A stretch of DNA of 64,000 bases from Psilocybe cubensis (taxonomy: Eukaryota). The position numbers were made by a program, and so were the translations under genes. Positions 7,895 to 32,000 of this stretch are shown piece by piece. The stretch covers positions 3,968,001-4,032,000 of the forward strand of contig CM038999.1 of the NCBI GenBank assembly GCA_017499595.2, read 5' to 3'. Below the pieces are notes generated by a model. The model saw nothing but the letters and a program-made list of their open reading frames with translations, searched no databases and was not told where the DNA came from. The first letter of the stretch is position 1, and every line of letters starts with the position of its first letter.

Positions 7895-8702
7895 ATGGAA
7901 CCTCAAAGAACCACCTCAAACATATTGATTTTTCTTTGCGCTCTTTCATCGCTATTGTTCACTTCAAGTCTCATTTCTCTGTACTTCAATGATGCTCGAG
8001 GAACAACCTACTCGAGCAAGCCTAAAAGCTACAGTGCGTGCGAATTACATTTCCCCAGAGTGACCGTTAAAGTCCGATATATTTTGACGGTTCACTTGCA
8101 GCCTATACATGGGAGGATTACCCACTTGAGGTTCCAATCAAACTTGAACCTACACTGGAAGTCGTCGTCGAAGAAAGCGTGCACTACCAAGTAATCGGGC
8201 CCGAAGCCCACGATGAATGGATGTACGACTCGCCTCACGGCGAAGGCACCTTCCGCCTGGGCCCCAACCGGCACTACTCGACCATCGCCATGTTCCACCA
8301 GCTCCATTGCCTGCGTATTTTTCGCGGTGCCATCGCAGCGGGGCCGGACTACCCGATGAAGCTGCAGCGCCAGCACCTCGAGCATTGCCTCAACTATCTG
8401 CGCGAGACGACGCTCTGCGCTGCGGATCTCACACTCGAGCCGGGGGACTTCGCCCAGCGAGATTTCGATCTCCAACGTACTGGCGCTACGCATATGTGTC
8501 GCGACTATCGGGAGCTTTATAAGTTGTCCGAGAACGACTGGGCGGACTGGTATGTATACATGTATCGACATAATATATCATGTAAGTTGTCTCCGAATTT
8601 GACAGCCCTTCAAATGCTTCGTGTACTCATTCACAAATTATAGTGTCCGAGTTGAGGGAGAAGCAACTAAAGGAAATCGGAGAGCTTGCGTCCATTACAT
8701 AA
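7895..8702 (+). CDS. UstYa/DUF3328-family oxidase with two intact HxxHC motifs
   Basis: Exons 7895-8033 (TM anchor; alternative ATG at 7868), 8102-8581 and 8644-8702; AMFHQLHCLRIFR and QHLEHCLNYLRETTLCAADLTLEP, HMCRDY. Confidence 0.92.
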
Positions 8703-10457: not shown

Positions 10458-13400
10458 TCAAAACCCCCTAAGCGCACTCGCAACCCTCGCAAGCCCATCA
10501 AACGACAACACACCCCTCCACTCCTCCCGCACACCATCTTCTCCATACTCATATTCATGGCGATCTCTATGATGCCCTGGCCTCTGCCTCTGCGTCACAT
10601 ACAGTCCGCTAGCGCCAGCGACATTGCGAGGGTTGTTTTCCCCGACACGCCGGGTTTGCTGCTGTACAGGCATAGACACAGACACAGACACAGGCACCTG
10701 GACATGTACAGCTGCGAGCGGCTTCGTGCTGACATTCGAGAGCGGGTATTGGCCCCGTGCAGCTGGAACGACCAGGTTCTTCGTTCTACCTCGCTGATCA
10801 TCCACATCGGCATTGGCGTGCGCATTTTCGTTGGTGTCCGCATTAACATTAGATGTCGGCACCGGCGCTAGCGCTATCGCATCCTCTTCCACAACTTCAA
10901 CTTCAATCGAAGGTTCCATGAGCGCAGGAGGAGGCGCCAAAGGCGGCGGCACAGGCGTCCTTTCCTCACCGCTCCCACTCGCGCCGACCCTGATCTGTGG
11001 AGGTACATACGCGTGGTTATTGTTGCTGTGGTTATTGATGTTCAAATCGAAGCCTCCAACATCATCATCGCCATCGCCATCGCCGCCTCCAAGTCCCAAT
11101 CCAAGCCCGAGCCCGAGCCCCATCCCCATCCCCATCCCCATACCGTAACCAAGTCCATACCCACCATCATCCTCATCCTCATCCATGAATTTATACGCCG
11201 CGTTCTCGTACTCGTCTTCGTACCCAGACGGTGGGCGGGACACTTCTTTTGGTCGTGTCTGTGAATTGAAATTTATTGGATGAGCAGCATCCGCGTCCGC
11301 GTCGTCGTTGTTTTGCTCAGAGTCTTCTTCTTTTTCTAGAGTTAGTTGTAATTGTATAAGCTGCTCACGCTCCTGCGCGTCAATCTCCTCTTCGCGCGCT
11401 TGCGCCTGCACCTGCATGGGCTGAGGCTGATGCTGAGGCTGCAGCTGAACGTGCTGCTCCATCACCTCACCTCCAAGGACGACAACCTCCTCAACATCCA
11501 CACCAAGGTTCATCTTCTCCTCCCCCTCCCCTTCCCCCTCCTCGTCCGAGCTCGCCGCATCCACATCACCATGAGCAAACTCACCACCGTCCACCCCACG
11601 CGCGCGGCTCAGGCTTCTCTGTCCCCTTCCTCGTCCTCGTCCTTGTTCTTGTCCCACACCTCGCGCACGGCTCACGCTCCGCATGCGCATGCTCATCCGG
11701 CTGCGGCTCCTACTATAACTGCCAAGCCTGCATCGGCCTTCCTCATCCTCCTCCTCCTCGTCGTCGTCGTCGTAACGAGAGTGTGAATGAGAATGAGACC
11801 GCGCCCGACGCTCTTCGACGCCCACATCCATCATGCGCATCCATATCTTATGCACATCCGTGTATTCGTCTTCATCTCCGTCTTCGTCTTCTTCTCCTCC
11901 TTGGCCTTCATCCTCCCGCTCCTGGCTCTCTCCATCTGCGCGCGTTCGTTTGCCTTCGTTTGAGAGGGATATCTCCTCAGCAAGGACATCAAGCACCCTC
12001 TTCTCCTCCTCGTCCTGTGCCTGCACTTCCTCCTCCCCTCCCTCTTCACCACCACCACCCGCCTGAGCCCGACAAAGCGCCAAATACCCCAACGCAAGAC
12101 TAAGCGCGTCCTCCCTCCTCTCACGCGCACTCATCACGCGAATACGCACGTTCCTCCGCGGCTGCTGCTGCTGCTGCAGTGGTGGTGTTCGCCTAGTAGC
12201 GCGCTTTTGGATTTTGGTTTGGGTTTGATGCCGCCTACACCCATGCGCATGCGCGTGCGCGGTCGGATCGTCTCGCGTACGCGTACGCGTACGGCCTTGT
12301 CTACCTTCATCCACCTCATCCTCATCCTCATCCTCATCCTCATCCTCTTGCTCACGGTCCCCATCCCCATCCCCATCACCCTCATCCCCATACTCATCCC
12401 CAACCCCAACCCCAACCCCAGACGCAGACCCAACACCAACCCCCATCCAAAGCCACCCACGCATCCACACCCACGCAGCACGCATCTGGCGCGCGCTCAG
12501 CGCCGTCGTGCCATCTACATAGTGCGCCCGTTCGCTTTCGCTTTCGCTTTCCGCGGGTTCTTGCTCCGTCTTTGGATCTGCCTCCTTTTTTGGCTGAGGC
12601 TCTGGATCCGTTTTTGTCTGGCGCTCCGTTTTTGTCTGGCGCTCCGTTTTTGTCTGGCGCTCCGTTTTTGTCTGGCGCTCCGTTTTTGTCTGGCGCTCCG
12701 TTTCTGGCTGAGGCTCCGTTTTCATCTCTGCATCCACCGCTGTCACAGCCGCCGCCGCCGACGCCGACGCCTCGACAGCAACATCACGACGATGACGAAG
12801 ATGAAGCAGAGCACATGAACGCGCCGCATCCGCGTCTGCGTCTAAATTGTCTCCACCCAGCTTGGGCATCTCATCCCCGCTCGCAGGCGTCCGCCCAGGT
12901 GTCGACCCAGGTCCAGGTGCGGGTCCGGGAACGGGTACGGGTAAAGTAATAGGTACAGAGAGCGGAACGGGTTCAGGGAGCGTGAGCACCATCGAATGCG
13001 ACCGCGGGCGCGGGCGCGGGTGTGTTCGCGTCGTCGTCGTCGTCGTCGTCTTTTGGGGGACACACACCACTTTGCCCCCTTTACCCCCCACCTCCTCCTC
13101 CTCTACTTCCTCATCTTCCTTGAATCGTCCTTCATACCCCGCCTCGGCGTCCTCGTCGTCACTCACACCATCAACATCAATCTCAACCTCCTCCTCCTCC
13201 TCGGCGTCGTCGTCATAAAGCACACTAAGCACAACCTTCCGCATCCTCTCCATCTTAGCTCTCTCCAAGCCTTCCTCATGCGCGTACGATTTCCGGCTCT
13301 CGCCCCCTCTTTCATCCCCAGCCTCCTGCGATCCCACACCCGCACCTTCGCCAAGCACGCCCAAATCAGCCTCACCCACACCCAAACCCTCATGCTCATG

Positions 13401-14531
13401 ATCATGATCATCCTCATCCTCGAAATCAAACACCCCAACTTCGACACCCTGCCCTAAATACTGCACCCACCGCGCGCGACGAGCTTCCTCCTCCGCCTCC
13501 TTCTCCTCTGCATCCTTCTCGATATCCTCCACATTCTTCTCATGAACATCCTTCTCCTCCGCGTCATCCCACGAGCGTTTCATCGCCGCGCGCGCAGCGA
13601 TCGTTAGTCTCGCTGCACCTGCACCTGCACCACTACCACCACCCGCACCCGCGCTGGCAGCAGCAGCAGCAGCATTAACCCCTCCATCTCCATTCCCATC
13701 TACACCCTCATCCCCATCCTCCTTCCCATCCGCCCCCGTCCTCGCACATCCCTCACACCCACCCGCACCCACACCCGCACCCACACCTCCACCCACACCC
13801 CTCTCACCCTTCGAGCGCACCACAAAAGGCAACGGCGCAAACGTCGTTCTCTTCATACCCGCTCTCCCCTTCCCCTTGTCCATCTCCCTCGAATTGGCCT
13901 GCGGAGACGCAAAGGTCGATTTCGCAGGTGTACCAGCAAGAGCCGCAAGCGACGACGAGCGCGGCCGCGGGCGCGTGCCTGCTAGGATCGATGTCGGTGT
14001 CGACGTGGACGGTACTGCGGGGAGAGTTGGGAGATTCTGCGTTTGAGTCTGCGTTCGTGTGCGTGTTCGGGGGGTTTGTAGTGTTGGGACAGGTAACTGT
14101 GCCTGTGTAGACGTAGACACAGGAGCAGGAGCAGGAGCTGACGCAGACAGAGCGGGAGGAGGAGGAGGAGGGGGCATGTGGCTGTTATGCACGGGGTACA
14201 GCGTATACGCAGGCGGCGCGCCGCCCATCAAGCGCGTCATTGTCGTCGGTGTATCCGTTCTCTGCACCTGCACCTGAACCTGCGCCTCCAGCTGTATTGA
14301 GCTTGAAGCAGGCGCGTTTGTCGGCGGTGGTGGTGGTGCAGGTGCATCCACATTCGCGTTACCCGCATTTCCACCGTCACTCGAGCTCGAATCAGCACCG
14401 CGGACTCGCATCCTCAAAGGCGTCGGCGTCTGTCTCTGTCTCTCCATCTGCGTCCTCGATCCACCCGCACCACGTTTCGCTTTTGACGCGCGCCTAGGCA
14501 AGCTCGCGCCACTCGGACCCGGCGAGAACAC
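10458..14531 (-). pseudogene. 3' part (1357 codons) of a low-complexity gene disrupted by the transposon
   Basis: Long ORF with no ATG at its 5' edge, starting immediately next to the transposon target duplication; joins in frame with 22180-23301. Confidence 0.8.
12604..12722. repeat. Coding 18-bp tandem repeat, about 5-6 copies (TERQTK)
   Basis: Repeated TCCGTTTTTGTCTGGCGC. Confidence 0.9.
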
Positions 14532-14533
14532 AG

Positions 14534-14561
14534 TGTCGGAAATTTCGGGATAGCCTTACAA
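14534..14561 (+). repeat. Left terminal inverted repeat
   Basis: Matches the reverse complement of 22152-22179 at 24/28 positions. Confidence 0.9.
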
Positions 14562-15619
14562 TGATGGGGCCTAGATTAGGCCAAAATTTGGCTTCTAATG
14601 TGATTCGGCTCTCTTAGAATGCCGACTTTTGCCTTGCGTTGGATTAGATAAATATAGAAGTCATGTGTCACTCACTTGTAAAGAGGGGCAAATGAAAATG
14701 ATTTATAGAATGTATTTAGAGGACCAAATGCGTATTTATTTTGAGAAAATGTGAGTGCTAAATGTACAAGCTACCGTAAGAAACCTACTGAAGTTGAAGT
14801 TGATCCATATTACAACCATACGAGGCCTTACAACTTGACTGTGACTAACGTCACACACATACACAGCAAGTGCAAAGTTGTCAGGCATTCAAGGGATGGT
14901 CAGTATAGATATATCAAATTGGACAATTTTCTACGTCATTGTGGATCATTTACACTTTATTTTATGTACTTTTAGTGCTGTGTCAATATCCCTGCAGTTT
15001 GTGCGCCATAGAGCACAAGTAAGCAAAGGGTCACGGCCGTGAGAAGAATGTCACATGGATCACGCGACACAGTGGACTTAGAAGAAAATCACATACATCG
15101 TCTACGTCTTCACCAAAGTAACTGTTTATGTAGCACATGCTATCTACAAAGGTAAATAATCTAGGGTACGGTGGATAATCAGTAATTCCACACGAAGAGA
15201 GACTAATTTTGAACATGATACATGGGAAAGAATGATTTGACTGATATCTCATAAGTTGATGCATTGTAACTCGGTGTTGATTGTTGTATGTTGCATGCAT
15301 ATTGCACTGTACAACTATGGTAGTACTGCCTTAATCATCAACAATGAGAATCTTTAACCTCTTAAAGACCTTTGTGCTGGATACTATGACATATTTTGAT
15401 AGATGGTTACTAGAATACATGTTCTGGCAGACTAAATTGATGAACTGATTATGGTAGCTTAGTGATGTAGCGCAGCAGAATGATGAAACTAGGGCCTATG
15501 AGACGAATAATCTCCAGCACACTCTATATTAGATGCTGGTAAAATAGTATAAAAGCAGTTGGATCATATTTAATTCTTTATCTGCTCCTCTTTCTGATAT
15601 CTTCTTTACTTTCAAAGAC

Positions 15620-18600
15620 ATGGCTAACCGCCGCCAGCCAAAGGACCAATTGTGCCCAATATGCAACAAGATGTTTAGCATCCAAGGCATTGCTCAACAT
15701 ATCCGATCATGTAGTGGCAAAACACCAAGTCTGGATGCACAGAATGCTTTTGGAGATTTTGCAAATAGGGTTTATGAAAATAGTATGTCATAGTGTATAA
15801 TCTAATTATTGACATTTACCATTCAAAACTCATACAGACTCTCTACATTATACATCAATTTTAAATGCTGCTATTAGCCACTCTCCAGCTATACCAAATG
15901 AGGATTCTACAACCGCTTCTTATTCTGCTATAGATATGGCTCAAATGGAGACACAGGATTCTCTAAATGGTCATCATATTTCCCTTTCAATGGAGCCGGA
16001 AGATTCAATTGAGCCAGTCACAAATCAATCCTCTATACTTCAAATGCTTGATGAAATTTCAAATAATCATTTGCCCCCACCGCTTCCACATCAAATCTGC
16101 ATTGAATTTCATCCAAGTGCAAATATGCCACCAAAATTCATTCCTACACACCAATATAATCCAAATTCCTATCAAACGTCACCAACACCCCATTCTACCA
16201 GTACCAACCCGTGGCATCCATTTAGGACACGTCTTGACTTCGAAGTGGCAGAACTTGCACTTAGCTCACATATGAATAGGCAGCAAAAGCAGATTTTATT
16301 AACCCTTATTGACAGAATCAAAGAAAAGCCAGAGCAGTTTACAATTGACAGTGTATCAGAGCTTGAGAAGACCTGGGAGCTTGCTCGTAGCTACCGTTCA
16401 ACTGGAGTGCGTAATATTTTTTCTATTTTGTAGTTGTACTAACTAATACTATGGAGTACAGTTCCAGAAAAAGGAATATCTTGTACCATACCAAAATGAT
16501 GAAATTGGGTATGAAGTGTATATCCGGCCACTAATTGAGTGGTGCAATAGTCTTCTTCAGAATCCTTCTCTACTTTCACAGTTTCATTGGATTGCTGAAA
16601 GGCATTATAAACAAAATGACGGTAAACGAGACCGGTTGATTGGAGAACCATGGACTGCAAATGAATGGTGGAGCATCCAGGTAGATGTATATATTTTTCT
16701 TTTTACAAATGTAGAATACTTATCATCCTACTCTGCTTTAGAACCTTCTTCCCAATGGTGCATTACCATTTTTTATTATCCTATATGCAGACAAAACTCG
16801 GCTATCCACCTTTGGTACTGCAAAGGCATATCCAGTGCTTGCTCGCTGTGCAAATCTTCCAGCAAATCTTCGAAACAGTGATGGTATTGGTGGGGGAATC
16901 CTAGTTGGATGGCTGCCTATTGTAAGCATTCTAAATGTTATAAATTTTTTTAGTATTAAACTCCAAATATGGATTTCTAGGTTGATGAAGATGCTGGCGA
17001 GTCAGGAAAGAAAATTTTTGTAAACTTCAAGCGTATTGTTTGGCACAAAGGATTCCACGAAATTCTTAAGTCCGTTCAAGAATATGCCACAACAGGATAC
17101 TATGCACAGTGTGCAGACAACATTGTCCGGTGGCTATTCTTCTTTATTTTGATTTTATCAGCGGATTATGAAGAGCAGTAAGTAATAGTTTACTTCAATA
17201 TAATTGTTATAGTAAATGAAACTGTTGGGCGCCTATTTTATAGATGTGTTATGGCCCTAACCCGTGGTGCTACAAGCAACTTTCCGTGTCCTGTATGCTT
17301 GGTTCCAAAGGAAAATTTATCAAATCTTACCACGGTATACCCTTATCGAACATCAGCAGAAATGAAACACATATATACAGAGGCACAAAATTTTACAGCT
17401 AAAGATAAGGAGAATTATTTAAAAGAATATGGATTACGAAATGTAGAGGTATAGTGCATTATATATGTCATTATTCTTGATTAATATTTCCTACAGAATG
17501 TATTTTGGATGATGAATGGGAGTGATGTATATAAAGCTCTTTCCTGGGATCGACTACATGCATACCATGGTGGACTATTTTCTGATCATTTATGGTCAGA
17601 ATTTAAGGCTATTATTGATAGCTCTGGAAGGAAAGATGCTGAGATTATTGACAATCAGTAAGCATTGATAATATAACCTCTTGATGGATAAGTAATAATA
17701 AGGTTTATGCTTTTATAGATTTGATCAAATTCCTCGATGGAGTGGTCTTAATCACTTTGCATCTATAATTAAGACAGGAGAATTTGCAGATGGAACAAAA
17801 TATGAAGATATAGCAAAGGTACACATGCATTTTTTAGACACTAATTGTGAATATAATATATCTGTGATTTCTAGATCATTTGTTATGCATCTCATAATGT
17901 TCTAGAGAAGTCAGACCGTGGATATTGTCTGCTCAAGCTTATGCGAAGCTTTGTAGAATTGGATATGTATTCATCTTTGATTATTCATAGCAGTACAACA
18001 TTACATGGGTTACAAAAAGAACTTGCAAAGTTCTGTTCTATTCTTGAGGTAAGGCATTCTCCAATTCATATGTAGACCCAATTAATTCTCTCAACAATAA
18101 AATTTCCAGGAATATATTCAACTCCATCCAGACAAAAATTGGAATTTTCCTAAAATCCATTCACATGTCCATATGATTCAAGATATTGTTGCAAAAGGTG
18201 CAACTCGGAACTCTAATACTAAACCCAATGAAAAGGCACATGGCTTGCTTAAGCTCTGGTACCGCTTTCACACCAATTTCAAAGATGTGGCGCCACAGGA
18301 ATGTGCTTTAATTCATGTGTACAATATTATTTGTCTGATCTAGTAAATTTGCTTCTAACAGATATTAAAAATGAACCACGATGATCTTATTGCAATGATT
18401 ATTCGCATGGATATCAATGCTATTGATGATCTTGACATGCCCAAAGAGGACGGCGAAGAATCACTTATATCTACACCACAAGTTTCCAATCTTGGAAATT
18501 CATTGGGTAACGGTCTATTTGTTTGTACATGTATAATGTTATTAAATTGACATTTAACAGGATCAAGTAATGAGAAAAGAGCTCAAAGTCACATTTCAAT

Positions 18601-19281
18601 TGGGTCACTTCAAGCAATAATCACATTTGCCGATGTGGAAAAACAATTCAAAGAGAACATGGCATTTGAACGCTTCCGGATTAAAACAGGAAAATACCTT
18701 GCAGCAGCTTCTGGAAGTACTATCCGATTAAAAGCCAATCATAAGGTAAGAGTTACAAGAACAATTTAAGCATTATTTATTTTTCATGTCAAAACTTACT
18801 TGTGTAACAGATTACACCATTTGAGCTTGCAAGAATTCATTATCAGTCGGAAATTGATTGGTCGGCTCAAAGAGATATGGTTCGAGTTAGCAAAAGTTTC
18901 CACAAGCGGCCACGAAATGATTACGTCCTTTTGGCACTTGATCATCAGAAGTACTGCTTTGCACAACTTCTGTTCATGTTTATTGTGTCATTAGATGACA
19001 AAACAGAGTGGCCGCTTGCTCTTATTCTGCCACTTGATGAACCGGTTGATCAGCGCACAAATTTGGCACGTAGGCGTGATAAAGATTTAGAGTTTCTCCG
19101 AGTACGAGCCCGAAGGCGAACAAACTCTGCAATTATTGACGTACGTAGTATAGTACGCGGTGGCCTTCTGATTCCAGACTTTGGAAATGATGCAAACGAG
19201 TTTATTGTTATGGATTCACTTGATCCGGACATGTGGTGGCGGTTAAAATCAATAAAATTAACTACACATGTTTTATTATAA
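15620..19281 (+). CDS. Plavaka-family transposase with N-terminal C2HC zinc finger (multi-exon; one aberrant splice donor)
   Basis: CPICNK..IAQHIRSC; PWHPFRTRLDFEVAE; EPWTANEWW; ILYADKTRLSTFGTAKAYPVLARCANLP; GGGILVGWLP; ILSADYEEQ; RGATSNFPCPVCLVP; WDRLHAYHGGLFSDHLW; WNFPKIHSHVH; NTKPNEKAH. TATAAAAG at 15548. Confidence 0.88.
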
Positions 19282-19552
19282 CTAGTGTTGTTACATATTA
19301 AACAGAATACAATAAAGAGTGTAATCAAGCATGCATAGTGCTCTATTTTTGTGTTTTGTACACGTTATATTAAATTTTCAGCTTGATCCTTTACATAGTG
19401 GGAAAATGATGTTATATCAAGGCTATAGCACGGCGCTTAACATGAGGAAAGGGTGCGGCTCACTTTTCTGTTTAAAAGACACAAAATTTCTTCTTTCTGA
19501 GTAGCAGCACTGATATTCTAACTCATATCCTCTCTGGTACAACTCTTTGGTC

Positions 19553-21551
19553 ATGTCTTCATCAATGTCAATTGTTCCAAGCTCCGTTGCAGGCGAGTCA
19601 TCCATTTCAGGCGCGTCTTTTTTCCGTGGAGCAACATTGGCCGAGCTTGAGCAAGTAAGTAATATTTTAATGTATTTTTGCATTTTCTAGATTCTAATGA
19701 ATAGAAACAGAGGTGTCGGATCCAGCAAGATACCATTTTTAATCTGGAATCAAAGGTCCGGGAGCTTAAAGAGGAAAACGCAAGTTTGAAAATGCGCTTG
19801 ATCAACAAAAAAGGCGCTGTTCGACCTGCTGTCTCTGACACATCGGATTGCGCAGCCGAAATAGCTCTCCGAAAGGACCTTATTCGTCTTGCTAAATATC
19901 ATTTCATTTTCTATCGTATTATTGTTCCCAAGTCACTCTTTGGAAATCCCAGGCCTTCGTTCAGCTCTAACAATGCATCTGCTCGGTACAAAGACGAGAA
20001 TACATCCAAGCTTGGCAATATTGCGGAATTGTACGAATGCTTTCCAGCAAAGTACCATTCAATTATCAGTGAGAATGTGGAGATGGCAGTTAATGTGGTG
20101 CGTTTTATATCTTTTTTCCAAGTTTAGGATATCTTGCTCATATATCTTTATTCTATAGTTCGTTAAAGGCTTGTCGGAAGGCCGTTCAACAATACTAAAT
20201 AAGATTCGGACCTCTGCGCCTTCTATTTTCCCAAACATTCCATCTGAGCTGTTCACCTCACCATTGTCTTTTGGCCTAAGCTCCCATGCGGTTGTGCAAA
20301 CATTGCTTGGTGCATCGGACCGTGTAAAAGTGATGACCGGAACGAAGGAAATCTGGAAGCTCATTTATCCCAATGACACTGCGCACACATTTCCCCCAGT
20401 TTTATTTGCAGATTCTGACACCAACAACGCTTTGGGACTTTTTAAAAGTGATTTTCTTTTGAAGGTACAGTATATTTAATTCTGAAAATACATAATACCT
20501 GGCTAAAACTCTAGTTTAGACGGCAAGAATCATTCTTCTAGGGCCATCGGCCTTAAAGGCGGAGATTATGCCTCGAACACGGGAAGATAGTCCAAGCGCC
20601 CATATTGATAGTCGTATGAATTGTACAACACCAGGCTTGATAGCTGCGTCTGCAACAGCGGTATGTATTTGTTATTACATGTATTATAAATTGAGTGCTA
20701 GATATTGACTACTAATATAGACTATATACATCTTATCCGACGACCGTGAATTTACCAGTAGTGGTGTAGGACCAACAACAGGGAGGCTTTATCTTGCTCA
20801 ACACGATATGTACAAGCATTATCTCATTACACAGCAGTCATCACTCGCTTCACTGTTCAAATATTGGGATAATATTCTCTTTCCACACCAAAAACCCATT
20901 ATTCCTACTTCTATTACACAGCAGCCTACGGAAATCCTTACATCAAGCCATTCCAGGATGTCGGATTCCGAGTCAAGTCCATCTCCGCATCCGGTTTATC
21001 AGATGATTGCCAACTTTAGTCGACAAACAACCATAACTCCTAGTTCAACAACTTCTATTCCGGGTCCTATCGTTAATGTGGAAGACCGTGACACCGACTC
21101 TGATGTAGAAGACTTTGCGCCGCCACTACAAAGCACTCGGAACCTGCCATCTAATACTCAGGATATTACTGAAGATAGATCTGATACTGACGAAGGTACT
21201 TGTCTTTTGATTCCCACGCGTTTAGCTCATGCCCATTATGTATCATTGGTATTAGAACCGACTCCGGCAGCCTTTGAGTCTGCACTCCATGTTACAAATA
21301 CCACGGTCAATGCTCCACTCCCAGTATTTCTCCCAGTTCCGAAGACTCAGACTCCGACAAGCCCTCCCCTTTCTTCCAATACAGTCTCTGTTCCTAATGC
21401 TTCCACAAGCATTTCTCCACTTGAAGCACCAGTAATCAAGCCAAAACGTGGTCGAAAGAAGGGGTTGGCCCCTGTGCAGCCTGACGCAACTGTTGTAGCC
21501 AAAACACGGAGCACACGCTCTAGTAAGCGTGCTAATATTACACCATTATAG
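19553..21551 (+). CDS. Second transposon-borne gene: coiled coil, helical DUF6698-like domain and S/T/P-rich tail with basic motif
   Basis: Spliced MSSSMSIVP...LESKVRELKEENASLK...RIILLGPSA...TTPGLIAASATA..YILSDDREF...LFKYWDNILFP...KPKRGRKK; lies within the TIRs. Confidence 0.75.
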
Positions 21552-22151
21552 TAGGCACGCTGTACTTAGACTACTTTGCATTCCGGTGTATCTCATTATG
21601 GCGGACATACTACTGTGTTTGGTTGATTACTTCTTTGCTTTTCAATGCATAGTACGGCCCTCACGATTGAGATTGTCTGAAAAAATTGAAGTCCGAGTAG
21701 ACGACTCTGGACTCGATCGGTTACATCAGTTGACTAAGCACAGAAAATGTGGTGTCATATTAACGCCACACTATAATTTAAGAAAGGAGGTTTGGTCTAG
21801 TGGTAACAATGCTATTGGTAGGTTTGTCTTGTCTTGAAGGTCTGGCGTTCGGTTCTTGGTAAGTGCATAAAAGTTTGACTTCAACACAATTCCTACTGAA
21901 AGCAATCGTTGACTACTAATCAATTGGAAACTATGTCAGTGCGTTCATCTTCCTTTTAATTTGTTAGATGCCCTTTGAATCAAGCCCAACCTAGCAAGGT
22001 CTTTTAATCTAATCTTATTCCCTACGCCTTGCTAGGCATGTATAGACTTCTAAGCCACTACCTTACAAGGTCAATCACGGTTACTTCTTAGGCACGCTCT
22101 CAGATTGGGAGGCATCACAAGGCTAGCCGGGCCTTGCCGGCCTTTTCGGCC

Positions 22152-22179
22152 TTGTAAGGCATTCCTGAAAATTCCGACA
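22152..22179 (-). repeat. Right terminal inverted repeat
   Basis: TTGTAAGGCATTCCTGAAAATTCCGACA. Confidence 0.9.
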
Positions 22180-23301
22180 AGATATGGGATTCGGGACGGG
22201 TGTCTGCAACTGAGAAAACTGAGAGAAATGAGGGAACTGGGCGGAGATGGACGGCGGGAAGGCCGTTCGAGTAGGCGTTTGCGTTTGTGATGAGGGCAAA
22301 GGTGCAGGAGTTTGCGAAGGCGCAGTGGGACGATAAGTGTTTGTTATAGGGGTAGGGGTAGAAGTCGACGTTGACGTTGACTGTTGCACCTGTGTCAATT
22401 TCGATTTCGATTTCGACGCTGATGCTGATACTGGTGTTGGTGTTGGTGTTCCGGCATGTGCTGACGCTGGTACTGGCACTGGAGCTGACACAGATGCTGA
22501 TATCTCTCCTTCCCCGTCATCACCAAACACATCGTCCGGCACCCCGCCCGATCTCGGCTCTTCATTGCTCTTTTCCTTGTCCTTTTCCTCCTCCTTCACC
22601 TCACCGGCACCCTTACCCTTACCACCACCACCCCGCATCCCAGTCCTAGTTTTAGAGCGCCGCGGCAAATGGCTCCGATGCGGCTGCACGAACCCGCGCG
22701 CGCTCATCTTCGCCTGTTCCTCCCCTCCTGTCCCTCCTCCTCCTCCCGTCCCTGTTCCTGCTCTTCCCATTCCAAGTCCTCCCATTCCAAGTCCTCCTCC
22801 TATTAATCCCGCACCCGCACCTCCTCCCAAACCCGCACCCAAACCCGCACGTACACCAACACCACCCAACCCGCCTCCGGATCCATGGCCAAACCCCATG
22901 CCTACGCCGCCGAACTCGCCCTGCGTGACAACATGCCCATGCGCTCTAGCGTGCGCATTGATCGACGCGAAGCTCAGTGCCGCCGGCTTCATCTGCTGCT
23001 TCATCTGCTGCTGTGGCTGGGCACGCGCTGGAACCGCGACTTCATCTCGTGCGGGTGCGGGTGAGGGTGCTGTTGTTATTACAGGTACAGGAGCGGGTTT
23101 TACGAGGGAAGACGAGGATGAAGATGGGAGTGAGAGAGAGAGGATGAGCGTCGATGAAGATGCGGATGCTGGGGATGGTATCGCCTGCCCCTGCCCCTGC
23201 CCCTGTGCTTGTCCCTGCGCCTGTGCTCGCTTTTTTGGTGGGGATAGGGGTGTCGGTGTCTGAACAGAATTTTCCATTGCCATTGGCATTGACGTTGCCA
23301 T
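22180..23301 (-). pseudogene. 5' part (374 codons) of the disrupted low-complexity gene
   Basis: ATG at 23301 (MATSMPMAMENS); reads ...PVPNPIS into the TIR and stops at 22123 after 18 element-derived residues. Confidence 0.8.
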
Positions 23302-26300
23302 GCGCGTAGAAGATGTGTATTGTGATAGATGTGAGCTGCTAAAGATGTTGATGATGATGATGATGCAAGTGCAAGTGTTTTGGGTCGTAGTTGTATTTAG
23401 ATATTGTAGATGTCGAGCAGTGTAGTGTGTGGTATCACCAAAGCGATAGACGTAGATATACGCGTGCGTGTGATGAGGCGAGAAGGTGACAGTATCGTTT
23501 TTCAACGGTTCACTGGTTCAATACACAAGAAGGGGTAGACTGAGGAGAAATGATGTGTTAGATGCTTCAAAGTTCCAAGTTCAAGGTTCAAAGTACAAAG
23601 TTCGTATTTCAAAGGGCGAAGTTCAAAGTTCAAAGTCCAAAGGGGAAAAGAGCAAGGGGGAAGAACAATCAGCATCCTATACAGCACAAAAAAAACACAA
23701 ACACAACACACCTTATCGTCTCGTCTCGTTCGTTCGTTCGTTCGTATATGCTCGTACGTTCGTTCGTCGTATGCGTTCGTCGTATGCGTGCAAACACCCT
23801 AACCACGGGACGGGGTAAACCAACAAAAAAACGCGGGGAAGGGGAAGAGAGAAGAAAGGTCTAGAACGATTCGTTAAAAAGATATAAAACACACCCTTCA
23901 ACGAGAAGGTCCCAAACTCGCCCGAACCCTTCAAACCACAAACCACAAGTCCTCTTCGTTTCGGTCCCAAAAAAAAATAGCCTTGGAAAGTTGTAGCAAA
24001 TCCGTATGAAATCCGTATGAAATCTGGATCCGTGTCCAAAAAGCGTGCGAGGGCGAGGGACAAAGCGAGAATGCCAGGGAGAAAGCAAAGACGAGTATGA
24101 AGCCGGTGTGATGTACCCAACCCGAACCTCTCCACAAGTCCGCAAGTCAAAAGTCAAAAATGTGTATATGCCGTCGGGCAGGGAAGCGGGCTCGGCGCGG
24201 CGCGTGGTATTTGAATCCCGTTATGTAGATGGATGTATGATCCAATTTTGACACGTCCCCGTCCCTTGCGAATTCGATCTTTGTGCCGTCGACGCGTATG
24301 TATGCGTGTGTCTTTTCTTCAAGTTGTAATCTGTGATTTGTGATTTGTGGTCTGTGGAAAGATAATGGGAACAAGTGAAGGGAGAGGAGAGGGGAGGGAG
24401 AGGGATAACCCGAACGAACGATCAGAGAATGCACAACAAAGATGAAAAGAACAGATGAAAAGAAAAGATGAAGAATGAAGAAATGAAATATGCAAAAATG
24501 ACCAATGAAAAATTTTCCTCAAATTTGAGAATTTGGGAATTTTGGTTGAAAGTTTGAAAGTTTGTATGATTGAAAGGAAGCGTAGGTGTAAGCAAACGTA
24601 CGCACGTACGTATAACGTAGCGCCACGAACTACACACTGCACACTGCACACTTCAAACTTCACTAGTCACTAGTCACTTCCGAATCTCCCAGAACCTCAA
24701 CGTACAAGCCCGACCCGACTGACAGACCGAACGAATGACAGACCGAAGCAGCACTCACCCCCAAAACCAAAAAACCCAAAACCCAAAACCCAAAATCAGC
24801 CCAAAAACCAACCAAATCTAACCACCACCAAACACGAAGCCGACCAAAACCGACACAAAAATTGAAGAGGAAGACGAAACCCGAGATCACCACGTCCACT
24901 GAATGAAGCTTGATAGCTTGATAGCTTACGCAGGGATGAGATAGGATCCTGATTCCTGAACCAATACCAATCCCGCACGCCGGATGTCTATCACCCTATG
25001 TCACTCCTGAGCACGAGTCCTGGAGTCCTGGACAACCTATCGGTATACAGCTGATGCAGGGAAAGAGAAGGAAAGAGAGGGAGCAGGGAAGAGGCGTACG
25101 GAGCAGATCTCAGAACGGGACGGGGGACGGGGGTGAAAGGGGTGAGCAGACCGAGGTGATGTGGTCAGGTATTACGGGTGATGTAAGGTGAGCCGATGTG
25201 ATGTGAGCCAATGTTAGGTTGGGTTGGGTTGTGTAGGGTGATGTAAGGTGAGGCTAGGTAAGGTTGGATGAGGTGAGGCTAGGTGACGCGATGTCCGAGT
25301 CCGTTTCCGTACGGGCTGGACTTTGTCTCAGAGTTTGAATGGTATGTTATGCGATGTTATGCCGTGTGTTATCTTTCGGTGATGTTATCAGAAACAGAAA
25401 GGAGTCTGCTGCGTCCTCGTCCTCTTCGTGGATATGGATGTGGTGCAGGAGTAAAGAGAGTAAAGAAAGAGCTTATCGGTGAAGCGACAGGAGGCGACCA
25501 GCCAGCCACCCAGCCAACCAACACGATACCCTTCCGCTTTCCGCTTTCCGCGTTCCATTTTGATGATCCACTCTTATGAAAATAGTAACATCGTGTAATG
25601 CACGCGAGAGCAGGCGAGGCTCGGTCATGATGCATGAATATCGAATCATGATGCATTCGGAATACAGTATTGAATGCTTGAGGAGCTGGAGGCTGGAGCC
25701 GCACCGTCACTTCATCCATGAATGCTCAGGCTGATGTAATCTTTACCGTCATCGCTCTTGGTCTGGATGCGGTGCGAGCGCCGGCAAGGCTGGAGAGATA
25801 AGATAAGGACATTCAATGGATTGTTTAGAGGATTGTGCAAAGACTAGAGTATAGGACTGAATTTGCTGTGTTAACCGGCTGTATTGCTTTGTAACTGTGA
25901 TCATGGTCATGGTAGACCTTTGTGACAGCTGTCAGGAGTCAGGCCTTCAAGTTTCAAGCTTCAGGACTCAGTCGAAATTCAAAATTCAAAGTCATTACTG
26001 ATATCGATGATATCCTCTGACATAACCATTATCGATGACTCTCCATTTGTCTTCTTACCAAACCTCTTTCTTCGTAGTTAGAAAACGAGATTTTGATGGA
26101 CTTTGATGAATAAAATAAACCACTTCAAACACCGCTATTAGACCTTGTACAAAATAGGAAAAAGGAGAAACACCGCTCGGACCCACAACCTGCCCTTGCT
26201 CTTATGGCAAACAACAACAACAACACACCTCTAAAAAAAAAGTAAGTGGACCAAACCACCACGAACAATCCCAAAATGCTACTATTGTCATCACTTTTCC

Positions 26301-26750
26301 CTCCGCACCGAACGGGCTAAACTTATTGTACTCATTAAATACGTCAAGGACCAAGTAGGACCAAGTGGACCAAGTTCAACTTCACCATTCTCACAAAGCA
26401 AAGCAAAGCAGAGCAGAGCAGAATTATTATTACTAGTAACAACCATTAATTCAAACCACGCACAGGGCCCTCGCCACTCCGAGCCAATGCAATTCAATGT
26501 ACAACTTGAAATTGAATATATTGAATATACATGTATCGCTGAGCCGCCGCTGAGCAGGTGTCCTCGTCAACTTTATCTTTTTATCTTGTACAACAACACC
26601 ATCTTCACATCAGGACTCGTACTCAGTACTCGAGCTCAGACTCAGACTCTGACTCAGAATTCAGGAATCCACAAACCCAGAAACCCAGAAACCCTGAAAT
26701 CCAGAAATCCAGAAATCCATCATCCGACTCAACACAACAACAAGGAAAGA

Positions 26751-28634
26751 ATGCCAGAACAACACCCGGAGCCCTCACCCAAACCCACCCCCAACCCCAC
26801 CCCTGCCCCCAAACGAAAACCCAAACCCAACCCACACATCAACCCCGACCCACCCCCGCACCTGCGCAGGTACCAAACCAGGCTGCAACACCACCGCGCG
26901 ACGCACTTTCCCAAGGCGTATCCTATTACGTTGAGGTATCGGCCTTATCCTTATCCTTATCCAGCTTTACGAGTGCAGGAGGAGGAGCAAAAGGGAAAAG
27001 GAAAGGGCAAGGAGAAGGATCGACAAGAGCAGCTAAGACAAAGAAGACGAAAAAGAGGAGATGAAGAGGGAGAAGGAGAAGGAGAATACGCAGAGATCCA
27101 AGCGATGCACTTCCCCGTACCAGGCATATCCATCGCATTTTCCGACGGGGAGTACGACGAGTCTTCGTTCACCTGCGCGCCTCCTCCCCGCTCGCTCTAC
27201 GCCAGCATTTACTCGCCCACACGCACACCACGCACAATAAACCCACCACAACACACAACAAACCCACCACAGCGCACAACAAACCCACCACAACGCACAA
27301 TAAACCCAACACACACCCTCCGCCTCGCACACTCAACCGCCGCGAAGCCGCGGCTGGACTACCGCGCCAAATACGGGGATGGCGCGGTGATATACCCCAA
27401 CACGCTCTGGTCTGCGTATGATGCTGTGAAAGATGTAGCGTCGTTCACTGCGCTGCTTGGGCCTGGGCCTGGGCCTGCGGGTGCGGGACACGCTTCCTCT
27501 ATCAACTCCACCTCCTCCTCCGCCGACGACGACGCCGACAACGCCAACGCCAACGCCATCGCCGACCCACCGCGCATCGTCGGCTGGAGCGGCGAGCGCC
27601 TCCGCGAAGGCGACATCAGCTGCTGGGCCTTCCAGCGCGTCGTATGCGGGCCGCCGCCGCCTCCATGCGCATACGCCGCGCCGCCCGCCATTCCACTGCC
27701 CATTGCCACACGTATGCCAGAAAATGGGGGTGCAGGTGCGGGCGCGGACTATGTCCGACGCGGATGTCCACCTGCAATTCCACCTGTTGATGTACCCCCG
27801 TATCTGTATCCATATCTACACCCACATCCACATCCATATCCATACGCACATCCACACACAGTGCAACCGCATACACCTACCGCCCCATCCCAAGCACCAC
27901 CCCCAGCCCAAGCCCGCACCCCCCCAGCCGAATGCACCACCTACACAACCTACCTGCACACCCGCACTCAAGCCGACCCATACACGCGCACAACCCGCCT
28001 ATCCGACGCGCAGCTCACCACAATCGACGACTTCCTCGCGCTCGCGCTGCCGGGTGGGCTGGAGCCGCGCTGGGGATGGAGCGGGTATCCGAATGCGCGG
28101 GTGTCTGATCGTGCGCATGTGGTGGTTACGGCGCCTGTGCCTTTGTGTCCGGTGGTGGATGGGGGTGAGGGTGGGGGTGGGGAGGGAGGGGGGGAGGGAG
28201 AGGGGGGGAGGAGGAGGTATGTCACGTTTGACGAGATGGTTGCGGAGGAAGCTGAGAGGCTGAAGAAGAAGGCCGCTCAAGAGCGGGCGGAGGAGAAAGC
28301 GAGAGAGAGGGAGAGAAAGATCGCGCGGAATGGCAAGGGAAAGGGTAAAAACAAAGGAAAAGGCAAAGCGAGAGCAAGAGCGGAGGAAGACGACGGAGAC
28401 GCGGACAGGGACGGGGACGGGGAGAGCGGGGAGAGCGAACAACTGACGAAGAACAAAGTCTGCGACCACCCCACGGACCCAGAAGACATACCGTACCAGC
28501 GCATTCCCTCGCAGAGCGCGAAAGATATAGCTGCGGTGCTTGTGCTGGGCCTGTACGTCCCGCCCGACGAGCTGCGCGAGGCGTTGTTCAAGTTGGAGGA
28601 TATGGCGTGGAGAGGGCATAAAACTCCGTCATGA
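26751..28634 (+). CDS. Low-complexity protein, probable paralogue of the disrupted gene (possibly phosphatase-fold derived)
   Basis: Single long ORF, likely ATG at 26751; conserved islands AMHFPVPGISIAFSD, TTRLSDAQLTTIDDFLALALP, HVVVTAP, DIAAVLVLGLY and AWRG. Confidence 0.7.
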   Translation: MPEQHPEPSPKPTPNPTPAPKRKPKPNPHINPDPPPHLRRYQTRLQHHRATHFPKAYPITLRYRPYPYPYPALRVQEEEQKGKGKGKEKDRQEQLRQRRRKRGDEEGEGEGEYAEIQAMHFPVPGISIAFSDGEYDESSFTCAPPPRSLYASIYSPTRTPRTINPPQHTTNPPQRTTNPPQRTINPTHTLRLAHSTAAKPRLDYRAKYGDGAVIYPNTLWSAYDAVKDVASFTALLGPGPGPAGAGHASSINSTSSSADDDADNANANAIADPPRIVGWSGERLREGDISCWAFQRVVCGPPPPPCAYAAPPAIPLPIATRMPENGGAGAGADYVRRGCPPAIPPVDVPPYLYPYLHPHPHPYPYAHPHTVQPHTPTAPSQAPPPAQARTPPAECTTYTTYLHTRTQADPYTRTTRLSDAQLTTIDDFLALALPGGLEPRWGWSGYPNARVSDRAHVVVTAPVPLCPVVDGGEGGGGEGGGEGEGGRRRYVTFDEMVAEEAERLKKKAAQERAEEKARERERKIARNGKGKGKNKGKGKARARAEEDDGDADRDGDGESGESEQLTKNKVCDHPTDPEDIPYQRIPSQSAKDIAAVLVLGLYVPPDELREALFKLEDMAWRGHKTPS

Positions 28635-28959
28635 AACAGTCAGGTAGATTATTACAGTCGTTTTCGTTTTCGTTTTCGTTTTTTGCATAAATCTGAGAAT
28701 CGAGAAGCTCCTCGAATCGTCTCCGTGAATAAACATCCCAGGTACTTTACAAAAGAGAATGATAGGTATGTTTTGGACGCAGTTAATCCGCCAGTGCAGA
28801 TCTCGAGGTATCAGAATAGATGAACAAGATGTATATTCGAGCTGGTGTCTCGACGAACTTCTGCCAAAATTGGTTCTGCACCAGGCATACTGGTCCTGCT
28901 CAATCGCGACGAGTTGATTGTGGCCTGGACACCAATACGTCCGCTATCGATCGTTAAAG

Positions 28960-29028
28960 CTTGAACCTTGAACCTTGAACCTTGAACCTTGAACCTTGAA
29001 CCTTGAACCTTGAACCTTGAACCTTGAA
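28960..29028. repeat. Heptanucleotide tandem repeat (TTGAACC)9+
   Basis: Nine perfect units plus a partial unit. Confidence 0.95.
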
Positions 29029-32000
29029 GCGTGAAGTCCGAACATCAAATACACGCAAGCCTCCTAAAATAGTCCAAAACACACGAATCCGGGTGCACGA
29101 ACTTGCCCATCCACTTTACATTGCTCGCGAGGGAAAAGGGAAATGGGAAATGGTCGAAATGGTGTGCCATGCCATCAGAAATTTAGAATAGCCAGCCAGC
29201 CAGAAAGCCAGAAAGCCAGAAAGCCAGAAAGCCAGAAAGCCAGACATACAACCAGAAAGAAACAAGCAGAAACCCCCAGGACATCCATGCCGTTCAAAAT
29301 GAGGTTGACTTCATTGCCCATATACACTCGACTCGACTCCCAAATGGCACCCATCCAACGGCACGGCGGAGTTTCATGACAGCACAGCACATCGATAAAT
29401 ACATTGAGTGAATGATGGAGGAAAGAAGTCAGCATGCCCTGACCCATCCCAAAAATCCTAGGTACGCATCGAGTGTTATGTTTAGTACGTGCCGCATGAC
29501 GGCGTGCGAAGGATTGGTATTTTTCTTATCGTCGAAGATCTGACAGTAGTTTGAAACTAAGAAAGTAACCATGGTTGTCCACTCTGCCGTCCAGCGTCGA
29601 ACGTCCAACGTCCAACGTGAACGTGGACGTGAGAAGTGAAGGTGGACACGAAAGTTAACCTAACCGTGTGGCCCGGGTTTCCAAAGCTCTGAACATATGT
29701 CAATGTCCCTCAGTCCCTGAGAATCAGATACATAGGAAAAGGAGGGTTTCCAGTATGAGAAAACATGTACTTAACAAGAATAAGAGCAAGACCAAGAAAG
29801 ATAGATGGATTACCGGTTACCGGTCAGCGTCCGGTTGTTGGTGGCAAGGAGCTTTCGGAGAGGTAGGAGTGACTGATTTCAGCTTCTGTGCGCCACTGCT
29901 ACTTCAGTGGGCTTGAAAACATCGTCAACTTCAAGCGGAGACTCAAAATATTTGACGGTCACTTTGTACACGTGATCGCGCGACGCGACGCGACGCGCCG
30001 AACGCGACGTCGCCTCGCGATTGGTGATTTGCGTCGATTCATATATAGTAGAGATTGTACTCAGAGTTGACAATACACATCAAACGAGCGGGGACAATGA
30101 TGGTAGATGTATATAGGACATGGGATAATATTAATAGACACATCGTCTGTTTTCCCTATCATGATAGATATTCCATTTGATTGAGTAGGATAAGGATGGA
30201 TGCTGTAGCTGTAGATGCTTCGAGGTTGCTAGTAAAGCTTAAGCTTGAATCTTGAAGCTCGAAGGTCACTTTAGAGAGCTCTGAGGTACCAGAATAGATA
30301 ACTAAGATACTGGTGAATGGTCACCCGGGCACTTAGCGTGTGTTGGTCTGCTGAGCTGCAACAGGTCTACAGGTCAACAGGTCTACAGAGGGAGAGGGCG
30401 TTGGGATATGACACTTTGCCAATGCAAAAACATTGCTCTCCGTTTTCCGTAAATCATCCAAGAGCGCGCATCTGGGTAGAGAGGATCGGTAGCGGTCTGA
30501 CGCTCTGCAGGCCAATACGTCCATCATACATTATCCATGGTCAAATCACCGTAGAATCGAATACATGAGAAGCTCCCGAAATAATCTCAACACAAGCACA
30601 AGAACAAGAGCGCAGGTGGATCTATGCGTCCACTTAGCAGTGCGAGGGAAGGAAAGGGGAAACGATACCATGTATGCCCGCCCGTAGAAGTACAATTCGT
30701 ACGTTACAACAGACAACCAGACACACACAGAGAGAGAGAGAGAGAGAAACACCAGGAAGCACATGCCCACTACCGCTCAACTTGATCTTGGAGTTCGAGT
30801 CCCATCCCATGTGTCTATGTAGTAGTAAGAAACAAGAAATTGTACACGATTCGCCATTCACCAATCACCGATCACCAGTCACCGGTCACCGGTCCCCTCT
30901 CGTATGGCAGCCAGCCAACGCCAACGGCGGAAATTCACGACAGCACACAGACAAAGACACAGACACAGACACAGAAAAAGGCACAGACACAGATCGCTAT
31001 TTTGAATGATGGAATCCAGCGTGCATGCGGGCGTGCGGGCCTGACATCCAAATTAACATTCCACAGTCCCAGAATTCGAATTCGGATTCGGATTCCATTT
31101 CGTCGAGGTACGCGTCGAGTGTTTATGTTTATGTTTAGTATTACTATTAGTAAGTAAATGACAACGTGCGAACTTAAACCAATCGCATCTTTCTCAAGTA
31201 TCGTTGTCGTAGATCTGCCAATTAAAAGACAAAGACAGAACCTGGTTGACCACTGACCACTGTACAGCCCGCGCATCCAACGCGAACGACCAAAGTCCGA
31301 GTCCAAGAGTCCAAGTCCAAGTCCAAGTCCAAGTCCGAGACCGAGTCACTTAGATACGAAAGTTAGCCTATTTCTGCATCTGTGATTTCAGAATCAAAAG
31401 CCGTCGTGGACGTGTGCCCCTGAGATGTAAAGCAAAAAGGGTTTCCACGTTTCCCTGTAACTTTAAGTATTACTATGAGAGACGTATAAACATGACAACG
31501 GTAGAAGGGTTACTGGTTGGTGCACATGGGTGGCGAGGAGCTCAGTGAGAGGACAGGTCCAGGACTAAATTTCAATCTCAGCTTCAACCGGGTGTGGGCG
31601 TGGGAGGATGTTTTCAAGCGGAGAGTCGAAAAAACGATCACACATTACACGTGATCAGCGCGATGCGACGCGTTCAGTGATTCGCGGTGATTCAACGTAC
31701 GTGGTAATTGCACTCCAAGCTGACAGTATGTAGGCATCACCAACTAGCGGGACCGATGATCCGACTCGCACACGTACGATACCAAGTTAATCTTTAGTCC
31801 TGACGATATAATACTATAGGTATCGTACATCGTATCATTATAGAATAGAATGGAACGTACACGATAAACAAAGTTCTTTCTACATTGTGTGAACATTAAT
31901 ATTTGTTAGTTGTGTATGATCAAAACATACATTATAGAATATTCTTTAATTCTCAAGAAATGTCGGCTGCTGCCTTAGATATGTCTTGTAACAGTACTCC

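Follow-up and report, generated by a model that had tools for sequence, protein, structure and literature searches.

The name Plavaka was reportedly introduced in a PNAS paper of 2014. A study of December 2025 (PMC12730594) places Plavaka within the CACTA/EnSpm-Mirage-Chapaev-Transib (‘CMCT’) group of DDE transposons, with transposases that are recognisably similar to those of EnSpm and with C(2)C and H(3-4)H motifs common to both. It describes PlavakaA families as ending in 5'-TGT..ACA-3' and as making 2-bp duplications, and 2-bp target-site duplications (TSDs) were tabulated for Plavaka families in 2021 (Table S3 of PMC8290104). A preliminary description of the locus considered here had put forward its ends and the length of its target duplication as new. 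Since both were already in print (PMC12730594, PMC8290104), what the locus contributes is a polymorphic allele and a new family or copy; about Plavaka ends it tells nothing new, and its bearing on the Plavaka group at large is slight. Its value is local, namely a dated, base-precise insertion with a matching empty allele in other strains. Within the 64,000-nucleotide stretch of Psilocybe cubensis DNA that was analysed (henceforth referred to as the window), positions 14534-22179 very probably hold a DNA transposon of the PlavakaA lineage that is complete, is probably autonomous and has recently interrupted a long orphan gene within its coding frame.

Boundaries of the element and the empty site

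The element (14534..22179, + strand) is 7646 bp long, begins with TGT (14534-14536), ends with ACA (22177-22179) and has a G+C content of 0.389 compared to 0.459 for the window. Its 28-nt terminal inverted repeats (14534..14561 on the + strand and 22152..22179 on the − strand) are identical at 24 of 28 positions when the former is compared to the reverse complement of the latter, with mismatches at positions 9, 14, 18 and 19. A degenerate 28-mer representing both arms (≤3 mismatches) occurred at two sites in the 64-kb window, both of them the element ends, where 100 shuffled controls gave an expectation of 0.00. A generic repeat search (seed 14, minimum 40) returned no inverted pairs, and the 28-nt imperfect ends fall under those settings. 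An unstranded 2-bp AG duplication flanks the element on the left (14532..14533) and on the right (22180..22181), and element plus one AG amounts to 7648 bp. The TGT...ACA ends, 28-bp imperfect repeats and AG duplication claimed in the preliminary description thus matched base for base. The duplication was seen for the window copy alone, and for the remaining copies the flank is visible on one side. The octamer CCTTACAA occurs four times in the subterminal regions (14554..14561, 14826 and 22061 on the + strand; 22152-22159 on the − strand) and is absent from the 5.9-kb interior, a weak signal in small numbers, and its occurrences are possible candidates for protein-binding sites.

The same description had predicted an allele without the element, and this allele was found in three of the four public sequencing runs compared for the joint (X5, X7, X8 and X12). 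The empty-site joint, 14531->22180, skips 7648 letters, with 2 letters fitting either side, and was present in one contig of X7, one contig of X8 and 11 raw reads with 10 start places of X12. These three runs span two studies and two organism labels, and element depth was 0 across most bins in X8 and X12. The joint was not found in run X5, which contained a single contig of exactly 7646 letters corresponding to 14534-22179 with 2 letters different, as well as two contigs extending past 22179 with differing letters. Run X7, which has the empty site here too, contained a contig with 30 unlike letters ahead of 14534. Near-identical copies of the element sit at other sites in other runs, and the contigs of X5 and X7 end or start at 14534 and 22179, the boundaries expected from the window copy. 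Copies differ by 0-2 letters per 7646, which fits a young family. Depth in X5 was 84.8 on the element and ~33-36 on its flanks, a difference that is not readable as copy number. The whole stretch is contained in runs X1-X4, which all come from one study that may be its source and are therefore not independent evidence. The insertion is young and polymorphic between strains, in line with the recent origin previously proposed.

The interrupted host frame

As claimed in the preliminary description, removal of the element and one AG restores an open frame of 1731 codons (374 + 1357) on the minus strand, from an ATG at 23301 to a stop at 10458-10460, with a junction that reads ...PVPNPIS directly followed by VFSPGPSG.... 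The upstream part (22180..23301, − strand) holds 374 codons from the ATG, and the downstream part (10458..14533, − strand) holds 1357 codons and the stop, is of low complexity and belongs to no Pfam family. In the interrupted allele the frame enters the element for 18 codons and reaches a stop at 22123-22125, so that no more of the 1731-aa host protein can be made than an N-terminal fragment of 392 aa. The restored frame is far beyond chance, since the longest simulated frames measured 449-564 codons (300 Markov simulations for each of orders 1-3), and its G+C content by codon position is 0.69/0.52/0.55. Among the strain indels listed (23 further rows exist), those inside the frame (6, 3, 6, 3, 6 and 12 letters) were all multiples of three, compared to one of the six upstream of the ATG (16, 8, 1, 3, 1 and 5 letters). 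Indels in multiples of three are also expected from the 6- and 18-nt repeats of the host frame. The frame as a whole matched no Pfam family. Searches for homologues of 746-2375 aa, with either the whole downstream half or its residues 1060-1357 as query, found none among the 7999 and 7998 most word-sharing candidates scored, a selection in which low-complexity words may crowd out relatives. The protein atlas returned no relatives, giving the same sequence alone, from residue 29 on. We consider the frame to be an orphan, low-complexity gene that is likely a working one.

We weighed this reading, and that of a recent insertion, against their alternatives. The split frame might not be a working gene but simply an open stretch of great length in G-rich DNA of low complexity, in which case there would be no ‘knockout’. 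The missing family, homologues and atlas relatives, the wealth of 6-, 12- and 18-nt repeats and the presence of frames of 247-308 codons on the opposite strand too would all accord with that, but it is made unlikely by a length of 1731 codons where none of 900 simulated sequences exceeded 564, by the strong codon-position bias, by the common reading frame of both halves when the element is taken out (one chance in three) and by in-frame indels that were multiples of three in six of six listed cases as opposed to one of six upstream. The clean split of the frame claimed in the preliminary description stands; its term ‘natural knockout allele’ would be fair only if the orphan frame works as a gene, which is likely. 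The insertion could alternatively be old, with the window allele ancestral and the empty sites elsewhere produced by precise excision. Cut-and-paste elements do excise, and the runs show that both states exist without giving their order. Excision by this group of transposases, however, usually leaves footprints, whereas here the empty site has none: exactly 7648 letters are absent, one AG remains and the 1731-codon frame is kept open. Together with the recurrence of the same empty site in three runs from two studies with two organism labels, and with copies that are only 0-2 letters apart in 7646, this renders an old insertion very improbable, and we retain the recent one.

Two probable genes within the element

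The first gene (15620..19281, + strand) is a transposase gene of 13 exons that encodes 983 aa and has no internal stop. Exons 1-7 lie at 15620-15782, 15838-16406, 16462-16680, 16742-16921, 16981-17177, 17244-17448 and 17497-17657, and exons 8-13 at 17719-17818, 17875-18048, 18110-18286, 18362-18512, 18561-18745 and 18811-19281 (all on the + strand). Exons 2-13 were taken from the public model P0002, from which the window differs at 0 of 1444 residues and whose introns are GT..AG. Exon 1 and the natural stop were placed by inference, on the basis of the sequence itself and of paralogue P0003 (970 aa), which is 62% identical to the gene 1 product over 959 positions and has the same C-terminus. 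The Plavaka type that had been suggested was borne out by the Plavaka transposase family PF18759, which was matched colinearly by 4 of 16 ORF pieces: three exon pieces gave 36.2, 39.1 and 32.6 bits (cut-off 26.3) over profile positions 40-229 and the fourth gave 16.4 bits (same cut-off), and P0002 itself gave 185.7 bits (E 1.7e-54, profile positions 38-322 of 325). Exon 1 (15620..15782, + strand) encodes a C2HC zinc-finger-like motif (C-x2-C...H-x4-C), which scored 19.6 bits against zf-C2HC_2, under the 27-bit cut-off, and is followed by a 55-nt GTATGT...ACAG intron. The exons of the PF18759 domain (16462..17657, + strand) contain two acidic motifs, LYADKT and SADYEEQ, as well as CPVC, and the exon at 18110..18286 (+ strand) contains HSHVH with PNEKAH 20 residues on, a candidate H(3)H and catalytic E that are kept in all three paralogues covering this exon. 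The pattern of LYADKT, SADYEEQ, CPVC, HSHVH and PNEKAH is present in gene 1 and conserved among paralogues, and the D/D/E and zinc residues assigned from it, following PMC12730594, are candidates.

The second gene (19553..21551, + strand) has six exons (19553-19654, 19705-20097, 20159-20464, 20520-20660, 20721-21195 and 21256-21551), encodes 570 aa without an internal stop and comprises a long N-terminal helix, a DUF6698 domain and a Ser/Thr/Pro-rich tail with a KPKRGRKKG basic patch. The DUF6698 (PF20414) region, which has two introns inside it, lies at 20165..20876 (+ strand), and residues 1042-1240 of P0002 matched PF20414 with 41.6 bits (cut-off 23.7, E 1.5e-10, profile positions 1-204 of 206). 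Among the 149 relatives listed, 92 are 400-699 aa long. PF20414 was detected at E ≤ 0.001 in 35 of 38 relatives scanned (four of these under the cut-off) and PF18759 in none of the 38. A predicted model of P0002 residues 885-1247 was confident (pLDDT 90.1, pTM 0.82), and its comparison to the PDB by Foldseek gave nothing at E ≤ 0.001 (best 0.72). With VIA-align, run against 48,161 chains, Z did not exceed 5.0, and the rows cover the long helix only (residues 12-67). Relative P0024 is without the long helix. Its model had a mean pLDDT of 64.4 with its domain (residues 1-290) mostly above 90, and its best matches, at Z 4.8 where the tool's bar is ~8, were KRIT1 (58 residues aligned) and the Prospero homeo-prospero domain (115 aligned, rmsd 3.3). 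The gene 2 model, although confident, thus matches no solved fold, which does not imply a new one. DUF6698 was not mentioned in the literature searched, including the text of PMC12730594 (0 matches).

Whether these are two genes or one depends on how the region between them is read. The public Psilocybe cubensis models P0001, P0002 and P0004 are annotated as transposase-DUF6698 fusions, which would give one long protein of ~1.45-1.53 thousand aa as in P0001 and P0002, and a GT...AG pair at 19242/19581 does keep the frame. In maize En/Spm, one alternatively spliced transcript gives rise to two proteins, a precedent for such an arrangement. Against this, the ‘intron’ of the fusion would be 340 nt long when the other 16 measure 48-75 nt, ORF1 has its own stop (19279-19281) at the same end as paralogue P0003, ORF2 is opened by an ATG at 19553, and its relatives mostly stand alone at 400-699 aa, with the Plavaka domain in 0 of 38 scanned. 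We therefore regard a single fusion protein as improbable, and the public models, which wrongly leave out the zinc-finger exon, as probably merging two genes, whose order (transposase, then ORF2) is retained in the diverged paralogue P0004. An identity as a canonical EnSpm/CACTA element rather than Plavaka, for which the recognisable transposase similarity and common C(2)C / H(3-4)H motifs (PMC12730594) might speak, is extremely unlikely: the ends are TGT..ACA and not CAC(TA)..(TA)GTG, the duplication is 2 bp and not 3, and the best Pfam family is PF18759.

Neither spliced ORF1 (983 aa) nor spliced ORF2 (570 aa) has an internal stop; the coding capacity of this Plavaka element is intact, and the element is probably autonomous. 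In the mechanism we propose, the 983-aa transposase would recognise both 28-nt inverted repeats, with the C2HC finger at its N-terminus as a possible means of doing so, and a putative D-D-E centre (LYADKT, SADYEEQ, PNEKAH) would cut at TGT/ACA, with CPVC and HSHVH as the presumed zinc-binding pair typical of the CMCT group. Joining of the element to a target whose strands are cut with a 2-nt stagger would follow, and repair of the gaps would yield the AG/AG duplication. For the DUF6698 protein, with its long helix, compact helical domain and basic tail, the most likely role is that of an accessory factor to the element. A more far-reaching reading, which we hold only tentatively and think rather doubtful, is that of a live two-gene PlavakaA in which the DUF6698 protein is an obligatory transposition cofactor not described before, a functional counterpart of En/Spm TnpA that binds subterminal CCTTACAA-type sites, possibly with a transposase fusion also made by alternative splicing. 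If true, DUF6698, a basidiomycete family without literature, would be a transposon-borne protein family, and Psilocybe would gain a native, currently mobile tagging element. The hitherto unstudied DUF6698 is now tied to a transposon, of which gene 2 is the least explored part. Overall, the precise insertion with its empty allele, the intact coding capacity and the near-identical copies elsewhere are good circumstantial evidence that a PlavakaA element is currently mobile in a cultivated mushroom species. Such an element could account for gene disruptions that differ between strains and might be put to use as a native tool for tagging.

Comparison with known transposons

A literature search on Psilocybe cubensis transposons gave matches that concerned other species. 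With regard to RAG1 and Transib, the element's transposase has no sequence match to solved structures: a phmmer search of the PDB with P0003 gave one chance row (E 1.5) and no RAG1 or Transib match, and a five-sequence transposase profile gave 0 rows, so that the RAG1/Transib link rests on PMC12730594. In relation to En/Spm (CACTA) of maize, the element lacks CACTA ends, has a 2-bp in place of a 3-bp duplication, carries weak subterminal repeats (four octamers) and encodes a second protein (DUF6698) with no detectable likeness to TnpA. With PlavakaB and MarorPlavaka of Marasmius oreades (Table S3 of PMC8290104; PMC12730594) it has the Pfam transposase family and 2-bp duplications in common, and its inverted ends are likewise short (28 nt compared to 10-66 nt). 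However, the ends of those elements are CATCA(G)..TGATG, their autonomous members measure 11-13 kb and some PlavakaB families carry TET/JBP genes.

The closest likeness is to PlavakaA, whose TGT..ACA termini and 2-bp duplication the window element has. All six PlavakaA consensus sequences in the supplement of PMC12730594, compared over their first 400 letters, begin with TGTCG, and the window element begins with TGTCGGAA. Within that same portion, visual comparison shows PlavakaA-1_LB and the 5' end of the element to agree in 22 of the initial 30 letters, including GCCTTACAAT, and two of the consensus sequences code for a C2HC finger near the 5' end as the element does. The assignment to PlavakaA is suggested by termini and duplication, and indirectly by the likeness of the terminal 30 nt and by the shared N-terminal finger. 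Like PlavakaA, the element has no TET/JBP gene and an Agaricomycete host, whereas at 7.6 kb it is shorter than the published consensus sequences (~8.5-9.5 kb). For Psilocybe cubensis the supplement of PMC12730594 gives a PlavakaB family only, and the window element is of PlavakaA type. Finally, PlavakaA in print is a consensus, whereas here it is a single dated insertion with an empty allele.

Ends of the element and its empty site

The PlavakaA-type element extends from 14534 (TGT) to 22179 (ACA) on the plus strand (7646 bp) and is flanked immediately at both ends by an AG target duplication (14532-14533 and 22180-22181). The first 28 letters match the reverse complement of the last 28 at 24 of 28 positions; boundary inspection and a script thus bore out every point of the preliminary description, which had proposed TGT/ACA ends, 28-nt imperfect inverted ends and an AG duplication. 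A degenerate 28-mer spanning both arms, allowed up to 3 mismatches, detected only two sites in the window, which are the element ends, and none in 100 shuffles. Four copies of the octamer CCTTACAA lie in the subterminal regions and none in the interior of the element, which is a weak signal.

An empty allele in other strains had been named beforehand as decisive for the insertion. When four public sequencing runs were aligned to 12500-24200, the predicted joint (14531 to 22180, skipping 7648 letters, with 2 letters fitting both sides) was found in run X7 (one contig, shorter side 108 letters), run X8 (one contig, shorter side 87 letters) and run X12 (11 raw reads with 10 start places). The sequence at this site, ...AACAC-AG-ATATGG..., is footprint-free. 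The insertion is real and unusually clean. Element depth was 0 across most bins in X8 and X12, and only short conserved exon stretches drew reads, with 90-95% likeness, which derive from other Plavaka families. In X12 such reads stack only on short conserved exon stretches within 16801-18755 even though this strain lacks the element, indicating that diverged Plavaka families are present there too; loose read ends were also seen in X12 at 17003, 18254 and 18299 (22-30 reads each). Four further runs (X1-X4) contain the whole stretch and may be its source.

The remaining aligned run, X5, showed no empty-site joint among the reads and contigs aligned to 12500-24200. One X5 contig of exactly 7646 letters corresponds to 14534-22179 with two differences, from a copy that may or may not lie at this site, and two others continue beyond 22179 into sequence that differs from the window; the X5 depth ratio is not readable as copy number. 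The element is also present in X7, where the window site is empty and the contig in which the element starts carries 30 unlike letters before 14534. Since the X5 and X7 contigs break at 14534 and 22179, different copies share sequence up to the proposed ends and no further, and the element occupies other locations in other strains. Across the runs compared, the copies are nearly identical, with 0-2 differing letters over 7.6 kb.

The interrupted host frame and its surroundings

Removal of the element and one AG fuses two minus-strand frames into a single open frame, from an ATG at 23301 to a stop at 10458-10460 (374 + 1357 codons, junction ...PVPNPIS/VFSPGPSG...), and a script reproduced this previously proposed restoration. 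The longest frame in simulated sequences of the same composition was 564 codons (300 sequences per Markov order 1-3), and G+C in the restored frame is 0.69/0.52/0.55 at codon positions 1/2/3. Among the rows listed, the six indels between strains within the frame are 6, 3, 6, 3, 6 and 12 letters long, all multiples of three, and the six upstream of the ATG are 16, 8, 1, 3, 1 and 5, although the repeats of this highly repetitive frame favour multiples of three anyway. Its length relative to simulation, codon-position G+C, the register of its two halves and the indel lengths together speak for a real gene. The frame yielded no Pfam family, no homologue and no atlas relatives in our searches. The interrupted allele would encode a predicted fragment of 392 aa.

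The frame contains approximately six tandem 18-nt units at 12589-12714 (minus strand), coding the repeat TERQTK, as well as many 6- and 12-nt repeats and in-frame indels between strains. A second long low-complexity frame (26235-28631, 799 codons), with a sub-threshold PARP-repeat match only, is followed directly downstream by repeated copies of the 7-nt unit GAACCTT (28949-29032). Elsewhere, the window holds an ORF piece of the mycotoxin biosynthesis protein UstYa family (8071-8640, plus strand, Pfam E 4.4e-17); an NLR-like gene of a type common in fungi, a frame of 759 codons that carries NPHP3_N/NACHT domains (44058-46334, plus strand); a tandem pair of MFS transporters approximately 4.12 kb apart with repeated blocks 73-92% identical (53495-55069 and 57639-59195, plus strand); and a multicopper oxidase (laccase-like) exon (61321-62220, minus strand, E 1.6e-38).

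Genes of the element

The Plavaka transposase family (PF18759) matched 4 of 16 plus-strand ORF pieces in colinear order, and one element exon used as query retrieved Psilocybe cubensis proteins with 99% identity. One public model, P0002 (1444 aa), is encoded by the window with 0 differences in 18 exons separated by GT..AG introns and scores 185.7 bits for PF18759, which upholds the Plavaka assignment, and 41.6 bits for DUF6698 (PF20414).

We think that P0002 is imperfect in two ways: it misses the first exon and fuses two genes. An upstream exon coding a C2HC finger (15620-15782, plus strand), absent from P0002, joins it in frame via a 55-nt GTATGT..ACAG intron. The paralogues P0003 and P0004 begin within this finger, and, by eye, a C2HC finger is also coded near the 5' ends of two published consensus sequences, PlavakaA-1_LB and PlavakaA-4_SLL.

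As to the fusion, P0002 spans 19242-19581 by a 340-nt 'intron', the remaining 16 introns being 48-75 nt. A single long protein is the public reading, but a stop codon at 19279-19281 closes the transposase frame at precisely the point where paralogue P0003 (970 aa) terminates, and an ATG at 19553 starts the downstream frame. The downstream part has 199 relatives at E <= 0.001 in a search of 1.84 billion representatives; among the matches listed (149 besides the fused model P0001), the length is 400-699 aa in 92 and at least 900 aa in 4. DUF6698 was present in 35 and the Plavaka domain in 0 of 38 relatives scanned (top-ranked and longest). These observations make the 340-nt bridge doubtful, and we therefore propose a model, predicted from sequence, in which the element would contain two separate genes, one of 13 exons for a transposase of 983 aa and one of 6 exons for a DUF6698 protein of 570 aa; neither frame has an internal stop. 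P0004, a diverged paralogue, has the same order, transposase then DUF6698 gene. As public models over 15620-21551, P0001, P0002 and P0004 all omit the zinc-finger exon and join the two genes across the 340-nt 'intron'; P0001, in addition, has a later start and lacks part of the Plavaka domain.

The predicted structure of the DUF6698 protein (pLDDT 90.1) consists of a helix of 40 residues and, after it, a compact helical domain; for this model, and for that of a relative lacking the helix, matches to solved folds stayed within the noise of the tools. Atlas clusters carrying DUF6698 are mostly Basidiomycota, and no mention of the domain was found in the literature searched. Our guess, from its position, conservation and basic tail, is that this protein might be an accessory factor.

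Comparison with published Plavaka elements

The transposase would act by a DDE cut-and-paste reaction. Its motifs LYADKT, SADYEEQ, CPVC and HSHVH, then PNEKAH 20 residues on, are conserved among paralogues and appear to fit the order D, D, C(2)C, H(3-4)H, E given for the group in PMC12730594; sequence searches of the PDB gave no match to the transposase. PMC9674265 describes a deletion at a Plavaka element, with clean excision not observed.

The preliminary description was right to identify a Plavaka-type transposon, but print has overtaken its claim to provide the termini and target-duplication length of a little-known group, since PMC12730594 (December 2025) already reports both and PMC8290104 (2021) had earlier listed the duplication length. 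The former divides Plavaka into two lineages, PlavakaA with 2-bp TSDs and 5'-TGT..ACA-3' termini and PlavakaB with 2-3 bp TSDs and CATCA..TGATG termini; the latter gives, for 23 Plavaka families of Marasmius, the length of the inverted ends and a 2-bp TSD, with ends all of the CATCA type among the rows listed. In the supplement of PMC12730594, PlavakaA consensus sequences start with TGTCG in six of six cases and TGTCGGA in five of six, and Psilocybe cubensis is represented by a PlavakaB family only. By eye, the Laccaria PlavakaA consensus and our element agree at 22 of the first 30 letters. The element has the PF18759 transposase, the TGT..ACA termini and the 2-bp duplication, three of the four features that define PlavakaA, the fourth being clade placement of the transposase. 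Overall, the element adds a new family or copy to a lineage already known, in another species, and was caught as a strain polymorphism.
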